From assembly GCA_964016885.1 (NCBI GenBank), contig OZ024741.1, positions 347,882,001 to 347,946,000 on the forward strand: a DNA stretch of 64,000 nucleotides, in the 5' to 3' direction. Below the pieces are notes generated by a model. That model was not told the origin of the DNA. It worked only from the letters and a program-made list of their open reading frames with translations, and made no database searches. Below, piece after piece: positions 6,862 through 49,154 of this stretch. Positions within the stretch are counted from its first letter, which is position 1, and each line of letters starts with the position of its first letter. The translations under genes were made by a program, and so were the position numbers. This DNA is from Eledone cirrhosa (lineage: Eukaryota).

Positions 6862-6912
6862 GGATTCATGATGATTTCTAAGGAATGAAACAGTTCTAGT
6901 CCTGTAGAATCT
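6862..6912 (+). ncRNA. degenerate type I hammerhead in a solo Penelope pLTR fragment (6850-6990)
   Basis: gattc-ATGATGA-tttctaaggaat-GAAA-cag..ctg-TA-gaatc. It is homologous to the pLTR of the PLE at 32.5-36.9 kb, with a stem I compensatory change (gattc/gaatc vs gcttc/gaagc). C3 is mutated to A. Confidence 0.7.
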
Positions 6913-7014
6913 CATCTATATTAAAAGTTTTATACTCTGCTATGTATTGAGTAACTTACTTACTGTGGTTACCTCCGATTCAACCCGGAATAACTTACCT
7001 ATATATATATATAA

Positions 7015-7370
7015 TATCAATTCAAAATATTAACAAAATAGATATTCTTCTGATCAATTATATTTTGTTTAAGATAGTAGATGGTTAAGATTCAGTCATG
7101 GTAGTGACTACCATGATTGAATCTTAACCATCTACTATGTCAGGGTATGTCATGTATCATTTTATTTTATCTGATGAGGACGTACTTTTAAACCTAACTC
7201 AGTACCTTTGAAATATGTATAATAAAATATAATTGATCACAAGAATATCTATTTTGTTAATATTTTGAATTAATATTAAAAACTCTGGAAAACCTCGCTG
7301 TTGAGTGCTTCCAATCTATTGTAAAACTTATTATTTGATGTATTCATTGAACCTTGTTTAACTTTTAAAT
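7015..7370 (+). mobile_element. TA-flanked fold-back mini-element (PLE pLTR-like)
   Basis: Outer arms at ~7018-7068 and 7224-7273, plus an inner near-perfect palindrome at ~7075-7138. A hammerhead lies on the right side and (TA)n flanks both ends. Confidence 0.8.
7163..7229 (+). ncRNA. minimal type I hammerhead ribozyme
   Basis: tattttat-CTGATGA-ggacgtac...gtaccttt-GAAA-tatgta-TA-ataaaata. Stem I is 8 bp and stem III is short and quasi-palindromic. Predicted cut after 7221. Confidence 0.75.
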
Positions 7371-7415
7371 ATATATATATATACATACATACATATATAT
7401 ATATACATATATATA

Positions 7416-7458
<43 letters not shown>

Positions 7459-7467
7459 AAGTGTGTC

Positions 7468-7538
7468 CTCATCAGTGGCCTTCCAACCGTCGTAGGCATT
7501 TCGTCGCATTAAAGGCCATATACCTCAGGTTGGTGCGA
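7468..7538 (-). ncRNA. non-circularly permuted hammerhead candidate, copy 1 (core intact)
   Basis: Minus strand reads tcgca-ccaacc-TGA-ggta-TA-tggcctt-taa-tgcga-c-GAAA-tgcc-TACGAC-ggttgg-aaggcca-CTGATGA-g. Confidence 0.75.
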
Positions 7539-8367
7539 GCAACGGCTAAAAAAAGTCGTTGGGACACGTAAATAAGGGGGACGCTAGGGTAAACAAACAA
7601 AATGGTTTAAGCAACAGAAAGTGATGAAGAAGAAACAAGTCACAGATTTCTATGAATATAAATTCGGTGGAATCGTGAACGAGAGAATAAAGACCATAAA
7701 ACCTGGTTGAAATGTGAGCAAGGAAGGAATTTCGCACAGGTCTAACGGGAGGAAGAAGGGGCCTGGTCTGCGAATTCGGTAAACATAAGTTCTGTGAAGT
7801 CGCAGACGAGAGAGAGAGTAACAAAATTCATACCGGCTTGGCCACGTGCCCGCGAGAAAAGGATTATCATATTTACACATATATTTTTTCCTCCGCTGCC
7901 ACCAGTCTGTTTCGTTCTTTGTGTGTTTACCCTTTCTAGCAGTCTCTCTCTCTCTCTGTTAGCCTCTTCCTCACCTTTCACTCACTCACTCTCTGTCACT
8001 ACCTCTCCTCCTCCCCTTTCTTCCCGTTTGACCTGTCCGTAATCCTTTTCTCGAGGGCACGTGGCCAAGCCGGTATGAATTTTTTTCCTCTCTCTCTCGT
8101 CTGCGACTTCACAGAACATATGTTTACCGAATTCGGAGACCAGACCCCTTCTTCCTCCCGTTAGACCTGTGCGAAATTCCTTCCTTTCTCACATTTCAAC
8201 CAGGTTTGATTGTCTTTATTCTCTCGTTCACGATTCCACCGAATTTATATTCATAGAAATCTGGGACTTGTTTCTTCTTCATCACTTTCAGTTGCTTACA
8301 CCATGTTGTTTGTTTACCGTAGCGTCCCCCTTATTTACGTGTCCCAACGACTTTTTTTAGCCGTTGC

Positions 8368-8438
8368 TCGCACCAACCTGAGGTATATGGCCTTTAATGC
8401 GACGCAATGCCTACGACGGTTGGAAGGCCACTGATGAG
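8368..8438 (+). ncRNA. non-circularly permuted hammerhead candidate, copy 2 (GAAA changed to GCAA)
   Basis: Same as copy 1 but with GCAA at 8404-8407, so probably impaired. Confidence 0.65.
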
Positions 8439-8447
8439 GACAAACTT

Positions 8448-8495
<48 letters not shown>

Positions 8496-8717
8496 CTCCC
8501 GTTTGGCTTGTGTGGGTCTCTTCTTGCTCACATCTCACACACATCAACACGGTCTGTACCTCTCTCGCACATGAAATCCACCCAGCTTATGCTGACCGGA
8601 CAATCATGTTGCTTGTTTATTTTCCTATCTTCGGTTTGCTTTTGTCCTTCTATGTTGTTTACTTGTCCCACTCGCCTTACGCGAATTCTGGTGCCAATAA
8701 CTTATTTTAGTTATTGC

Positions 8718-8788
8718 TCGCACCAACCTGAGGTATCTGATTTTTAATGCGATGAAATACCAATGATGGTTGGAAAATCACTGACGAA
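8718..8788 (+). ncRNA. non-circularly permuted hammerhead candidate, copy 3
   Basis: tcgca-ccaacc-TGA-ggta-TC-tgatttt-taa-tgcga-t-GAAA-tacc-AATGAT-ggttgg-aaaatca-CTGACGA-a. Predicted cut after C8737. Confidence 0.75.
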
Positions 8789-9243
8789 GGACTATTTTTA
8801 TCATATGTAACCCATGTGCAAACCACGCAGTATTCTTCTTTCTTCTCATGTGTTTTTATATATATTTACCTCGGCTGCGTTTGTCTGTTTCTCTCTTACT
8901 GCTTCGCCGCTCTCTCTGTTTCTCTCACCTTGTTTCGCCCTCTGTCAGTTACACTTTCTCTCGACTGACCTCTTCCTCACACTTCCAATCACTCACTATC
9001 TGTTTCTGCCCTTCTCCCTTCCTCCCGTTTGGCTTGTGTGGGTCTCTTCTTCCTCACCTCTCACACAACTCAACACGGTCTGTACCCCTCTCGCTCATGA
9101 AATCCATCCAGATTATGCTGACCGGACAATCATGTTGCTTGTTTATTTTCCTATCTTCGGTTTGCTTTTATCCTTCTATGTTGTTTACTTGTCCCCCTCG
9201 CCTTACGCGAATTCTAGTCCCAATAACTGTTTTTATTTATTGC

Positions 9244-9314
9244 TCGCACCAACCTGAGGTATCTGATTTTTAATGCGATGAAATACCAATGATGGTTGGA
9301 AAATCACTGACGAA
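9244..9314 (+). ncRNA. non-circularly permuted hammerhead candidate, copy 4
   Basis: Motif identical to copy 3. Predicted cut after C9263. Confidence 0.75.
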
Positions 9315-9373
9315 AGACTATTTTTATCATATGTAACCCATGTGCAAACCACGCAGTATTCTTCTTTCTTCTC

Positions 9374-9441
<68 letters not shown>

Positions 9442-9627
9442 GGAGGGAAGAGAGCGAGAGAGAGGGAGTGAGAGAGAGAAATAGGGAGAGAGAGTTACAC
9501 TAACTACAAGTGCATACATCAAACCACATGTAAGGCAGAAACTAGTCAAACGTATAATATATATGGAACGAACCGCTAGAGCATGTGTGTTGACCACGCA
9601 TACATATATACATATATACACAGATAT

Positions 9628-29836: not shown

Positions 29837-30577
29837 TATTGAAATTTCCGTTGGAAACAGAAAAAGTCATAGAAGTGAAGAGTGCTCTATGTAAGTATCA
29901 GAGCAAAATTTAATGTATAAAAATCAATACAATATAATTACCTCATTACCAGAGGTTTCCCGAATGAGGCGAATACGAAAGAAACGTCTTCATTCGTTCG
30001 TCAGACGAGGCAATATAAAACATGGGTAAATACTTGGAAAGTCTCATCAAGAAAATCAAAAAAAGATATAGACAAATGAATTAGAAATTGAAATATATAA
30101 AAATCTATCAACAAATATAGTTAGGTGTGTGTATAAGTATGTATATACGCTCACAAATGTGCATACATGTGTATGCACATATGTATACGTATAGTGAAAA
30201 AGTGTGCGTAAATATAAAATTTAGGGCAAATGTATCTGTATGTCTGTAATCTACAGACAGAATAGACACATCATAAGAATATGAATAAGAAGGCGCGCGC
30301 ATAAACACACCCACACACACACGTACACTTAGATGCGGAAGTAAAAGCGGTAAGGGAGTGTAATAATTAAATGAAAGTATCAATCTCGATATATTTATAA
30401 AAATGTAACAATAAATTAGAAAGAAAATTTTTTAGAAAGAAAAAAATATAGAAAAGAAGACAAAAAAGGGTACATGCATACACAGACACGCATATCTCAC
30501 AAAAGAAACGCAAAAATATACATGCTTATATACACACGCACACTTACACATCCATACGTTCGATACGTATATATATA

Positions 30578-31326: not shown

Positions 31327-32480
31327 TTTTTGTCTTCTCTGCGCATGCGTTTGCGTGTGTGTATAGTGTTTGATATGTGTTCGCGTTTGGGTGACTGTGT
31401 TTTGGTTATTGTAGTCTATCTTAGTTTACTAGTGTGTGTTTATGTGTCTGTTTTTATTGTGCTTGTGTATATATTTATTCATTTATTTACATTTCTCCTA
31501 GGTCAGTATTGTTTGTTTGGGTGTTGTTGTTATTCCATTCATTTTTTTCTGTTTAGCTTTGGCCTTCTAAGTTCTATTTCACTGGCCTCTCTGATTTTCT
31601 GGGTCATTTCTATGTTTAGATATTTATTTTAATTTCTATGTTGTCTATGTTACCGGCATGTTGTTGTCTGGCGTGTTCGTATATTACTGAACCGTTTTTT
31701 CGTCCTTTTAGTTTCCCCCAGTGTTGATCTATCCTTTCACCTATGTTACGAGCTGTCCCGCCTATGTATGTTGTTGTCATGTTTCTGCAAGTACACTCTG
31801 TACATCTTATGCTATAGACTACGTTTCTAGTTTTACAGTTTATCCGGGGCTTTACTTTGTATATAATACATTTCCTATTAGTACAGTGGGTTTTCTTAAA
31901 AGGGTATGTTTTGCTGATCAGGGATTTTATGGTGGTTCCTGTCTTTTCTACCACCTTAATCTTTAAGTAGGTCTTTGTCAGGTCCTTTCTACACTGGTTA
32001 GCTAATTTCCCTCCAGGGGTAGCGTCCAGGAACATGACACTCTGGTATCTCTGGTTGTCGCACCATAAGATGGCTTTCCCTATCTTATGTTTAGTCCTAT
32101 CTAAGCTATTCCATGATTTGCTCCTGTATAATGGGCAAATTCCTTTCATGTCCAGTTCTATGAGGGTCTTATACTTCTCCGTGGCTCCTTCGTATACTCT
32201 GATTCTGTCACATGGGTTGTAGCCAGAGAACTTCATGCGGTTGATGATGTGTTATATGTGTCTTTCCATTTCTGTTGGGTCGCACATGCGGGACACGTTC
32301 TTCATCACTCGTACCAAGTCTGCGGTCAGAATTTAAATTTAGCACTGCTGGACATTGCTGAGTTTTTGAGTATCAGGTATTTGGAGGCCATAGGTTTCGC
32401 GTAGTGTGAGTGGAGAATTTGGCACTCTCGTCTATAGTGTTAATCCAGAGTTTCGTGTCTAATACAGGTAGTCTGTGGTT
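31015..32480 (-). mobile_element. 5'-truncated Penelope-like element B (RT C-terminus plus GIY-YIG), decayed
   Basis: ORF 31616..32236 reads SGY...PLYRSKSW...TPGGKLA...CKTRNVVYSIRCTEC...YIGGTARNIGERIDQH...HARQQH. HYAKPMASKYL occurs upstream. A degenerate HHR (acca-CTGACGA-tgctgca..tgcaac-GAAA) lies at 31198-31240 in the 3' region. Confidence 0.85.
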
Positions 32481-33487: not shown

Positions 33488-36231
33488 CACACACATACAC
33501 ATATACAAGCACACACGCATACATACACATACATACATACATACAAATAAGTACACATAAACGCATAGCACAAACACGCACTCGTTCGCACTCATATATG
33601 TGTCTATAATATAATGGTAGTGGGACAAATTTTAAATTTTAAATTTTAAATTTTAAACTGGGCCTGATAGAGGATTAAAATAATTAATATCACTACTAAG
33701 TTATTAATATTATCATCAAGTAATTAATTACTATTTATTATTTACTATTTATCATTCACTATTCGTTACCTATCTTTTATCTTTTATCTATTCATTACCT
33801 AATCACTCACTCATAAATAAATAAATAAAATAATGAGTTAACTAACAAACAAACAGACAAACAGATAAACAAATAAACCTGTAAATAAGTAAATAAATAA
33901 ATAAATAAATAAATAAATAGATAAATAAATAAATAAGTAAATAAACAACTAAATAAATAAATAAATAAATTTAAAAAAATAAAAAAAAAAATAAAAAAAT
34001 TAAATATACAGATAAATAGATAAATAAATCACGAACGTGTGCGTGCAGCAGTTCATAACTGCACGTATGCAAACATGAGCAGGTATATACGTGAATTTGT
34101 GAGTGCGGCCACAGAACTTTACTCAGAGGCATACAACACGATATATAAGACCTGGAAGGGAGGAAAGAATGTAATAATGAGAGATAGAGGGGAGGAAAGA
34201 GGGTAATAATGAGAGATGGAGGGACGGAATTGGGATGGGGGACGGGGGTGGGGTGGTGATATGGGGGGCGGGATCAGTCGGGGGGCCGGGGGGTCAGTAG
34301 TTTTTGTAATTTGCATAGTTCTTGTGCATGCAATTAGGGGAGTGTTCCGAGATCTTGTTGAGGAGAGGGCCTTTGACGAATAGAATCTCATAGCTCTCGG
34401 AGATACAGAGGTCACAGCAATTATGGCCTCCCGTGTAGGATCGCGCTCTCTGGAGTAGTCTCCATTGAGTCTTGAAGGGGATGGAGTTCCTTTTAAGGTG
34501 CCAGATGTGGGCGGCGAGTGTAGTTTGGTTAGATATGTCCTGGCGCCGGAACGAATGTGTGTGGGCGTACCAGCGAGTCTTAAAACTATTAGAAGTCATC
34601 CCGATGTACGAGTTTCTTTTTTCATCGGGGCCTGAGAGTACATCGCATATATAGACGAGATCTGTTTTTAGACAGTTGTTGTTGAGAGGGCAGGTCGTCT
34701 TATCAGGGCAATTGCTGTTGCTATCGGTTGCTGGATGGGCTTCGGAAAAAGTAGACTTATTTAGCTTCTTGATGTTATTGTTGGCTAATTTCCTAGCTAG
34801 ATTAGGTGTGGTAGAGTAAGAGAGTCTAATGGTATTCTTATTAAGGATAGTATAGTACCTATGTTGGGTGGGGAAGTGTTTTTGTAAGAGAGTGAAGAAA
34901 ATTTTAGCTACAGGTGTTGAAACTTCGCGGTTGAAGGGGGGGGGGGGGGTGTACCAGCTAATGTGCCTTCGCCTATTCTTCCTGGGTGGGCGTGGGGCTA
35001 TACTAAGGTAGGTGATCTTATCTCTAAAGCCGCTGCGGGCCAGGGCCTCGTTGTAATAGGGGGCTGCTGCTCTAAAGATATCTTAATTGGCGGCGAGGCT
35101 AGATATCCTAAAGGAGACACTTTTTACTAGGTTGTCTAATATATTTTTGGGGTGGTTAGAATTAACGTCTATATATCTAAGAGATTCATTAGGTTTGTGG
35201 TACGGGTAGTAAACGGAAGTTTCTAAGTCGAGGGTAACGTCTAGGAAATTAGCTTTAGTTAGTTCGAATCTAAGGTAATCCTAAGGCCTAAGTTTTTAAA
35301 GAAGGTGTAAAGGTTTTTCCTGAACCCATCCGTGGTCCTGGGGTTGATTTTGTGGAGGGCAAAGAGGCCGTCATCTCGGTGGAGACCGCCGGAGAGGCCT
35401 GTGAAGAGGGTCTTCAACCTGTGGAGGATGAACAGACCCACAAGGTCACTAATATCAGCTGAGTCGCTAGCACCCATGATAACGTCGAAGGGGGTCTCAG
35501 ATTTTTTGTTGATCCAGTGGGATCTGTCATGGTAAAGAAAAGTCTTACGTGCATGGAGGATCACATCCTGCTCGGCTTAGGTAATTGTGGTTAAGTTCCT
35601 GGCGAAGTTAATCGCGTCAATCAGCAGGCTCTCTGATATGGATGCGTAGTAATCCTCGATGTCTAGCTGCAGGAAGCGGGTGTTGCTTTTGTCGGGCAAG
35701 TCCCGGAACCATGTGATTGCCTCTGATGTCCTATTCAAGAGTGGGAGAGATGAGGCAGCACGTAGTCTAGGTAGAATCCTGTCCAGGATCTTCTTACTGA
35801 CTGATCCTATGTCAGACTTGGTCGGGTTAATCAGCCGGACCGACGGTTTATTGTCGAAGTTGTTCTTGTGGTCTGTTAGGGTGAAGTGTGGGGACTTTAC
35901 CCTCAGAGGTCCTGTCCGGTCTTCCAGTTTAAGGGAAGTGGCGATCTTCTTTCCGGCTATGTTTGTTTCAGTCAAAGTAGTGTCATCAACTTTTTTGTAC
36001 TTTGCTATCATGGCATTATCAGCAAGCTTGTTGTATGTGTCGGGAATAACCGCATAAGTGTTTTTAGTTTTGTCTGAAGGGACGTGGAGGTACGGGGAAC
36101 TTTTCATTTTCAGAAGTTTCTCCTTTAAGTCCGTTTGGAAAGGTATGTTGACTTTCCTGAATTTAATATTTTTTATCATTTGAAGAGGTCTTCTTCAAAT
36201 GGTTCAAGTAGGCTGTTGGTGGGTGGAGCCT

Positions 36232-47856: not shown

Positions 47857-49154
47857 TATTGGTAAACGGAATAGAAAATGCTGACAAATTGTTCACAGTG
47901 AAAAATAGTTTAATTAGGAATAAGTGATAATTAGTAATAGTATTGGTTAGTATTAAGTTTTGGTTTTAAGTTTTACCGCTTGCGCAGTTCTAATGCTTTT
48001 CAAAAATAATTTTGAAAGTAAATCAACCGAAACTAAAATCTCTTCCAAACATCTCCGCACACAACCCTCTCAACAATGAGCCTCCAGAACATCCCTGTGT
48101 TGAAAAAGGACCATAGAATGAACCAAATCCTACGAACACACGATATCATAAAGAGCAAAAGACAATCTAAGTCAATGAAAAACATCTTAACACATGCCAA
48201 AGTACTGCCAACCACAACAACGAAACCCACAGTAAGAAAATGCGATAGACCCAACTGTGGCATCTGCATCAACCTAATAGAGGGTTCGGAATTCTATTTC
48301 AAAGAAGGACAACGTTTTATAGTAAAACACAATTTCACATGCGCATCGGAAAATCTAATATATGTATTAACTTGCTCAGGTTGTCGAGAACAATACATAG
48401 GCCAGACCGAAAACAGCCTCCGCCAACGCATGACTGTCCATAGATCCCAAATTAAAATACGGGAATACAGGAAAATACCACTGAGTGAACACATTGATAC
48501 CTGTGCAACCCAAAATCATCCCAACTACAGAATATTTCCCCTCTACAAATGTAAAGATAAGGCCACCCACACCCAGCGCATCAGCAAGGAATCTTACTTT
48601 ATTAACAAATACGGACCCCGTCTAAACACTTCTCCCTAATACGAACCGACATCATACACACGTCAACATACATACCTACATCAGCATACATATCTAACCA
48701 CATATAAACAGAATGACATACGTAAACACACATCTTGTATGGTGCAACACAAATATACACACATTTGCATACCTTTTGATGTCTATAGATATAAACATGC
48801 CGACACACACACATACATAAACGCACACATGCATTGCACACTGATGGGCACATACATATTTGTGCACAGGTATTCCAATACGGCAAGGCCTAATGAATCT
48901 GGACACACTCACACATACCTTGGTATTATCATTTCACACCTTTATATTAAGGTTTTTTATATATATCATTTCACACCTTTTATTATTAAGGTTTTTGATG
49001 TTCTATTGAGAGAATCGATTTTACTGAAAATATCGAATAATGTACACCATTTTAACAGAAATATATACTAATCCACCCACACACACACATTCTCACACAC
49101 ACACACACACATATATATATACACACACATACACACGCGCATTAACATACAAAG

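Follow-up and report, generated by a model that had tools for sequence, protein, structure and literature searches.

A predicted pseudoknotted hammerhead ribozyme of non-circular strand order in probable Naiad-derived repeats of Eledone cirrhosa

Motif copies and the repeats that carry them

The window, a 64-kb stretch of the microsatellite-rich 3.0-Gb genome of Eledone cirrhosa, contains four copies of a hammerhead-like motif of about 100 nt. All four lie where a preliminary description had placed them, although the fold begins about 28 nt further 5' than that description had it (e.g., 8690-8792 for copy 3), and the family numbers more than 10,000 members, the four copies representing two of its insertions.

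7464..7566 (-): ribozyme copy 1, of subfamily S1; intact core, cleavage predicted after A7519
8340..8442 (+): ribozyme copy 2 (S1), A13C at 8405, predicted inactive; the site equivalent to the cut is A8387
8690..8792 (+): ribozyme copy 3, of subfamily S2; intact core, cleavage predicted after C8737; P0 with one mismatch
9216..9318 (+): ribozyme copy 4, of subfamily S2; intact core, cleavage predicted after C9263; some decay in hairpin Pa
7453..8453, ends approximate: S1 insertion, in which a plus-strand unit is joined to an inverted copy truncated at its 5' end; each of the two ends in a TA run
8493..9378 (+): S2 insertion with copies 3 and 4, adjoining the TA run that ends the S1 insertion; truncated unit (8493-8801), full 526-nt unit (8802-9327), and tail (9328-9378), followed by a TA run

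The CUGANGA cores of copies 1 to 4 begin at 7475 (-), 8431, 8781, and 9307, and GAAA begins at 7502 (-), 8754, and 9280 in copies 1, 3, and 4, the three in which the hammerhead core is intact. Copy 2 alone has GCAA, at 8404, and its predicted inactivity follows from the effect of this A13C change on the established hammerhead core. We searched the 64-kb window with a descriptor for the order S-G-C, where S denotes the block with the cleavage site, G that with GAAA, and C that with CUGANGA (nomenclature of Eckert et al. 2023); at least 5 bp were required in stem I and at least 4 bp in stem III. The matches were the three intact copies and nothing else, and there were none in each of 100 local shuffles. 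The differences between S1 and S2 are those previously described, namely, three compensatory pair changes in stem I, a switch of the 10.1-11.1 pair from G-C to A-U, and a U.G to U-A change in stem III, the remaining core differences falling at N7 and H17; the GCAA of copy 2 had likewise been recognized.

The motif is located at the 3' end of non-coding, pyrimidine-rich, TA-targeting units that occur in tandem or inverted arrangement, with tandem periods of 350 to 756 nt. In the S1 insertion, the inverted arms carrying copies 1 and 2 (7413-7866 and 8040-8493) are 96% alike. Genome-wide, a G+C-block pattern spanning both core halves gave 10,868 matches (0 in the control), a divergent-subfamily pattern gave 828 (0 in the control), and a 15-mer from the motif occurred 4,433 times (3 in controls). 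The 52 pattern matches found in metagenomes were dismissed as chance, none having an upstream S block. Sampled loci came from contig C1, among the first places listed, and from the window. Downstream of 152 distinct sampled copies lay a tandem unit in 39 cases, a TA run within 45 nt of the core in 46, a TA run after 46 to 200 nt (mostly following a short tail) in 63, and none within 200 nt in 4. The ribozyme end provides the strongest alignment of the unit between distant subfamilies and the deepest cover in a DNA read run, a probable-DNA contig set, and a contig set of unrecorded kind.

Insertions end about 65 nt downstream of the predicted cut. At the other end, 5' truncation placed the start of 11 of 94 copies within 23 nt of GAAA (the cut is at 16 nt), and one clean truncation junction falls exactly at the predicted cut. 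The truncations near the cut are a hint only, the boundaries being noisy and several of the copies rearranged within the same locus. Several of the 5'-most complete units (L005, L057, and L097) start right after CUGANGA, at the 3' strand of helix P0 (see below).

Strand order, helices, and covariation

The non-circular strand order claimed in the preliminary description (A-C-B in its lettering) was borne out and is the S-G-C order of the type SGC of Eckert et al. 2023. It differs from the block orders of types I, II, and III (CGS, GSC, and SCG), which form a nested three-way junction. The expectation that standard hammerhead models would miss the motif also held: Rfam models matched nothing in the 64-kb window at the gathering score, and relaxing the threshold to E ≤ 10 for 6900-9500 gave only chance matches, none of them to a hammerhead. 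From 5' to 3', the first half of the motif consists of P0, hairpin Pa, Pb, Pc, UGA, a stem III strand, UH, a stem I strand, and a 3-nt linker. The second half consists of Pb', 11.1, GAAA, stem III', a 6-nt loop strand, Pc', stem I', CUGANGA, 10.1, and P0'. The elements are as follows in copy 3.

8691..8694 (+): P0 5' strand, pairing with 8789-8792 just after CUGANGA-10.1 and closing the domain; G-C/A-U covariation between subfamilies
8695..8716 (+): hairpin Pa, one arm of the stem II four-way junction; one pair C-G in 30 and U-A in 28, another G-C in 29 and A-U in 27, of 58 copies
8718..8722 (+): Pb 5' strand (upstream stem II), pairing with 8748-8752, the bases before 11.1-GAAA; four positions paired in 107 to 111 of 114 copies
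8723..8728 (+): Pc 5' strand, pairing with 8768-8773; two compensated pairs; recovered by RNAalifold unprompted
8729..8731 (+): non-bulged strand (3n, 2n, 1n) of a kink-turn, with the bulged strand at 8762-8767 (3-nt bulge, G, A, 3b)
8732..8744 (+): block S, with stem III strand (8732-8735), U16.1 (8736), C17 (8737), and stem I 3' strand (8738-8744)
8748..8761 (+): block G, with stem II 3' strand, 11.1 (8753), GAAA (8754-8757), and stem III strand
8774..8788 (+): remaining block C, with stem I 5' strand (8774-8780), CUGACGA (8781-8787), and 10.1 (8788)

The order, the core, and stems I and III of the original proposal stand, but stem II had been left as one base pair. A stem II downstream of CUGANGA was considered and rejected, since only 1 bp there pairs with the G block. 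The four or five bases before GAAA pair instead with the upstream Pb strand, an arrangement that opens stem II to form a four-way junction and splits block C. Eckert et al. assumed that such an interruption of block C could not occur, and their SGC descriptor places a stem II strand, with G-C plus at least 2 bp, directly after CUGAUGA (PMC10085705, in the portion available). Here, that position provides 1 bp only, and the partner strand is upstream. Type SGC also has a helix bridging stems I and II; Pc is its equivalent, with the second strand located 5' rather than 3'. With its block C split, the predicted fold thus falls outside type SGC as published and represents a new hammerhead variant. 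Besides the upstream stem II partner, the four-way junction, and the bridging helix, the preliminary description had overlooked a kink-turn and the Penelope/Naiad context described below. Canonical hammerhead types assembled across tandem units were rejected, the partners being 400 nt or more apart and P0, Pb, and Pc being left unexplained.

For analysis of covariation, 150 distinct sequence windows were extracted, of which 114 were kept and sorted into six subfamilies; the other 36, including window copy 4, were 5'-truncated, rearranged, or unparsed. The alignment comprised 58 copies, i.e., at most 10 per subfamily among those with a 22-nt Pa, plus window copy 4. Over 36 named pairs, 92.1% of 2,088 cells were paired, compared to 86.0% in shuffles and 27 to 46% with slid partners, and 189 cells contained double changes, compared to 60.5 in shuffles (none of 500 shuffles reached this value); the cells trace to about six lineages and are not independent events, so that these figures are not probabilities. 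The number of pairs with both sides changed (15 versus 12.6) was not beyond shuffles, 39 of 500 of which reached it. Stems I and III were paired in 93.3% and 95.9% of the cells, with double changes, and Pc was paired in 97.4%, with two compensated pairs. Compensation between subfamilies was observed for stem I positions 3 to 6, two Pa pairs (fully compensated among the 58 copies), two Pc pairs, one P0 pair, stem III position 3 (U-A, U.G, and C-G), and the 10.1-11.1 pair. P0 pairing is understated in the 58-copy count for rows lacking one base after the core. The 10.1-11.1 pair is A-U, G-C, U-A, or G.U; it is paired in 103 of the 114 copies and mismatched in 11, including five of the seven S5b copies. 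The stem I and 10.1-11.1 covariation on which the initial claim relied therefore holds in the larger set of 58 aligned copies and six subfamilies. Pb is paired in 94 to 97% of the 114 copies at four positions, with no compensatory change between subfamilies in this genome; it is fully compensated, as read by eye, in published Naiad elements of Octopus and corals. RNAalifold, which cannot represent pseudoknots, recovered Pa, Pc, and stem III unprompted. At the level of sequence, covariation supports helices P0, Pa, Pc, I, and III and the 10.1-11.1 pair, and conservation, together with the compensation read by eye in the published Naiads, supports Pb.

In the 114 extracted copies, a set in which extraction favored intact cores, CUGANGA was found in 108, GAAA in 110, U16.1 in 113, and an H17 other than G in 114, this residue being A or C in every copy. 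The core is constant in the six subfamily majorities, in part because of the search patterns for S3 to S5, and H17, 11.1, the bulge, and stem positions vary. Conservation of the catalytic positions and an H17 that is never G form a pattern of selection on catalysis. We conclude from the sequence comparisons that the hammerhead-type structure of new topology is real and selected; it is probably catalytic.

The loop between stem III and Pc consists of a 3-nt bulge followed by G.A and A.G and is flanked by two helices, which is the sequence pattern of a kink-turn. The four G/A bases, which were unconstrained in all search patterns, are all intact in 102 of 114 copies and constant in the six subfamily majorities, and the three bulge bases and 3b.3n vary among copies. 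The 3b.3n pair is C.U, C.C, U.G, or A.G in 70 copies, U.U in 43, and A.A in 1, and Watson-Crick in none of the 114. According to the rules of McPhee et al., a kink-turn with C at 3b or G at 3n folds in Mg2+ alone (PMC4382518, in the portion available); the 70 copies belong to these ion-folding classes. A kink at this position would account for Pc being joined to stem III at its distal end and yet reaching the tips of stems I and II.

Nested single-sequence folds of S1 copies favor an alternative, rod-like structure (-32 kcal/mol) in which Pa, Pc, and stems I and III are lost; a rough pseudoknotted sum of about -43, in which loop penalties are omitted, is lower than that of the rod. In S1, the Pa 3' strand (8360-8366) can also pair with the kink-turn bulged strand and Pc (8414-8420), as can the equivalents in other copies, and this pairing appears by eye to be weaker in the other subfamilies. 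It is possible that this alternative provides an off-state switch.

Relationship to Naiad elements

The units show the pLTR-type tandem/inverted structure, tail, and (TA)n insertion of Naiads, features common to other clades of Penelope-like elements (PLEs), and have the unit anatomy described for PLEs by Craig et al. (PMC8557442). The accessible text of that paper reports Naiads as being without canonical hammerheads, with only "HHR_core" or "HHR_half_core" annotations ("HHR_half_core" in eight families), and describes cephalopod Naiads as remnants. We read by eye the last 260 to 350 nt of 46 of the 54 published Naiad consensuses, the ends being assigned by header order (PMC8557442). Non-circular hammerheads were found in 15 of these 46 3' ends. 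Seven are of the split S-G-C form (Amil, Aacu, Anas, 2_Movir, in which P0 is not visible, Obim, Ovul, and the decayed Esco). Two (Ptep, whose assignment is inferred, and Smim) are S-G-C with a downstream stem II and a bridging helix, and six, all from nematodes (1-3_Nbra, Hcon, Hpol, and Asuum), are C-S-G with clear stems. Four Darwinula ends contain partial cores that were left unparsed, and no hammerhead was seen in the stretch read of the other 27. Five of the eight "HHR_half_core" families parse as non-circular by this reading.

Also by eye, the ends of Naiad_Obim and Naiad_Ovul have the same Pa loop and kink-turn as the window family, with the upstream stem II, Pc, and P0 present and the letters of Pb, Pc, and the stems changed yet paired. 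Three coral Naiads have the same helix set and no kink-turn. In Obim, Ovul, and the corals, the partner of 11.1 is on the upstream strand, placing the split between A9 and 10.1. The motif is probably derived from a Naiad. In the bivalve and hemichordate Naiad 3' ends, no hammerhead is present in the stretch seen, and these ends share other conserved, apparently structured motifs (PMC8557442); these may be other ribozymes.

No Naiad open reading frame (N-terminal GIY-YIG, CxC, C-terminal reverse transcriptase) was found in this genome by exact motif scans and inspection of GIY-YIG loci, which are insensitive to decayed copies, in line with the published remark that cephalopod Naiads are remnants. 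Of two reverse transcriptase motif scans of the genome, one gave no match and the other a single match versus 6 in controls. None of 16 long GIY-YIG loci had an N-terminal nuclease, and all 19 nuclease-motif matches read as C-terminal types. Open reading frames beside units in L002/L031, L026, and L047 were rejected as partners because they are fragments of other Penelope-like elements, separated by microsatellites or on the opposite strand. A stem I motif resembling that of the Octopus Naiads gave eleven scattered matches (0 in controls), upstream of which no convincing Naiad reverse transcriptase words were detected. The loci with such a stem I (L132/L184:1400-1730, L181, L182, L186, L188, and L189), several of which retain the kink-turn bulged strand, look like old decayed relatives. 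Six loci recovered in the search for an autonomous partner match S2/S5-like hairpin starts.

Other Penelope-related sequences were encountered. Three long open Penelope-like reading frames, L165:1275-4562 (+), L163:4309-7122 (-), and L164:1988-4519 (+) (1096, 938, and 844 amino acids), carry reverse transcriptase and C-terminal nuclease motifs and are candidates for mobilization in trans. Fragments of C-terminal-nuclease Penelope-like reading frames are present in the window at 34297-36194 (-), 31619-32251 (-), and 48037-48636 (+), GIY-YIG being above the cutoff in the last, weak in the second, and absent from the first. Elsewhere in the window, reading by eye shows at 7150-7245 (+) a type I (C-G-S) hammerhead of the ordinary kind whose stem III is very short (core at 7171); it belongs to an inverted-repeat element of its own (about 7007-7290), next to the S-G-C motif. 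At 29943-30015 (-), a sequence resembling a type I hammerhead has a stem I of 10 bp and ends near a TA run.

Alternative explanations, proposed mechanism, and known systems

The motif might be an ordinary hammerhead of type SGC whose stem II is a single base pair, the upstream helices being separate or accessory. The 10.1-11.1 pair covaries by itself, Pb lacks compensation across the subfamilies of this genome, and minimal Penelope hammerheads with a tiny stem II exist. However, Pc and P0 covary, tying the upstream strand to the core on both sides, and the upstream strand of the Octopus and coral Naiads pairs, by eye, with the 5 to 6 bases before GAAA, including 11.1; we consider this explanation improbable. 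It is equally improbable that the helices form between tandem units, between two molecules, or only in a circular monomer (G-C...S, with the unit body looped out). Covariation cannot separate pairing in cis from pairing in trans, a tandem unit comes next in 39 of 152 copies, single-copy nested folds differ among the four copies of the window, and Penelope hammerheads acting as dimers are known. Nevertheless, all partners lie within about 105 nt, and the whole helix set is found in one copy at the ends of published Naiad consensuses.

Descent of copies within subfamilies overstates the independence of the counts, as would suit a chance arrangement in a neutrally decaying repeat, but that reading is already contradicted by the absence of matches in 100 shuffles, by between-subfamily compensation affecting five helices as well as the 10.1-11.1 pair, and by the same topology in coral and cephalopod Naiads, and we give it almost no weight. 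Finally, the structure might be kept as a protein-binding or priming signal for retrotransposition, comprising the kink-turn and the junction, and no longer cut. Insertion 3' ends lie past the predicted cut, so that full units need uncut or circular templates, and insertion of the Penelope element PAc in vitro does not need cleavage (PMC11167929). Against this, conservation extends to every catalytic position, variation is confined to N7 and H17, and each of the 114 copies has A or C at H17, making loss of cleavage a still less probable explanation than the two pairing alternatives.

The explanation that we favor, and hold to be probable, is that the S-G-C motif forms the 3' end of a likely non-autonomous Naiad (Penelope-like) retroelement and is predicted to fold, with several pseudoknots, into a self-cleaving ribozyme. 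The kink-turn would bend Pc back along stem III, bringing its far end to the tips of stems I and II, where Pc would act like the "I" helix of type SGC and allow the core to cut after UH. This folding and cutting are extrapolated from SGC and CSG ribozymes, which cleave in vitro at 0.004 to 0.19 per min (PMC10085705, in the portion available). Cleavage of a tandem transcript would yield unit-length monomers of about 525 or 620 nt. After the cut, stem I would be entirely in the 3' product, and P0, Pb, Pc, and stem III, about 20 bp in all, would join the products; held together in this manner, the ends of a unit monomer could rebuild the ribozyme and may ligate into a circle. Because insertions extend about 65 nt past the cut, the templates for full and tandem insertions would have to be circles or uncut multimers. 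A reverse transcriptase and nuclease of the Penelope type, acting in trans, would copy these templates into TA tracts, and tandem and inverted arrays would result. In the case of PAc, cleavage depended on protein, and insertion in vitro did not require cleavage (PMC11167929).

We more tentatively propose that the SGC, CSG, and split-core class is the native ribozyme of Naiads across animals and that the cephalopod form is braced by a kink-turn, perhaps gated by the host protein 15.5K, and religates monomers into circular templates; the evidence makes this broader proposal plausible rather than probable. The motif is likely to be the ribozyme thought to be missing from Naiads. The success of Naiads without canonical hammerheads has been used to argue that hammerheads may merely parasitize Penelope elements (PMC8557442, in the portion available), and the Naiad hammerhead question is an open point of retrotransposon biology that can now be tested directly and cheaply. 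If our interpretation is correct, non-circular RNA permutations move from rare metatranscriptome contigs into animal chromosomes, in more than 10,000 copies, and ribozyme and retrozyme censuses based on type I to III models are undercounts. The split block C breaks the published assumption of an uninterruptible block, and the occurrence of SGC, CSG, and split forms in one element clade offers a natural series for the evolution of non-circular permutations. A literature search that covered few subscription papers revealed no published report of permuted hammerheads in Naiads or animal genomes or of a split block C, and the literature search found no kink-turn combined with a hammerhead stem III.

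The closest known system is type SGC (HRIMA-1 and variants; PMC10085705, in the portion available), which shares the S-G-C order, the full core, the 3-nt linker between stems I and II, and a bridging helix that begins just 5' of the stem I strand. In type SGC, the stem II strand and the partner of the bridging helix follow CUGANGA, whereas both are upstream of block S here, and the four-way junction and kink-turn are further differences. The preliminary description had mentioned rearranged hammerheads from a few other genomes; the S-G-C order is indeed published, with 583 predicted sequences, but these come from metatranscriptomes, and the same report found no example in the genome of a known organism. 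Type CSG, known from two metagenomic sequences (PMC10085705), belongs to the same cyclic class and also has a stem II strand 5' of block S; its entire block C is 5', whereas only the stem II part is 5' here, so that the motif is intermediate between CSG and SGC. The 3-nt bulge, G.A and A.G pairs, and two flanking helices are those of the standard kink-turn (PMC4382518; PMC5061560, in the portions available), here placed, unlike in those reports, at the distal end of a hammerhead stem III. With Naiad PLEs (PMC8557442), the units share TA targeting, tandem and inverted truncated copies, and an optional 30- to 40-bp tail, but they are non-coding and have no linked Naiad reading frame that we could find. 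They also resemble, as non-coding tandem units with one hammerhead each, the non-LTR retrozymes that Li et al. propose to derive from Penelope pLTRs (bioRxiv 10.64898/2026.07.22.740005, in the portion available); those retrozymes were defined and searched by type I hammerheads only, whereas the hammerhead of the present units is of the S-G-C order.
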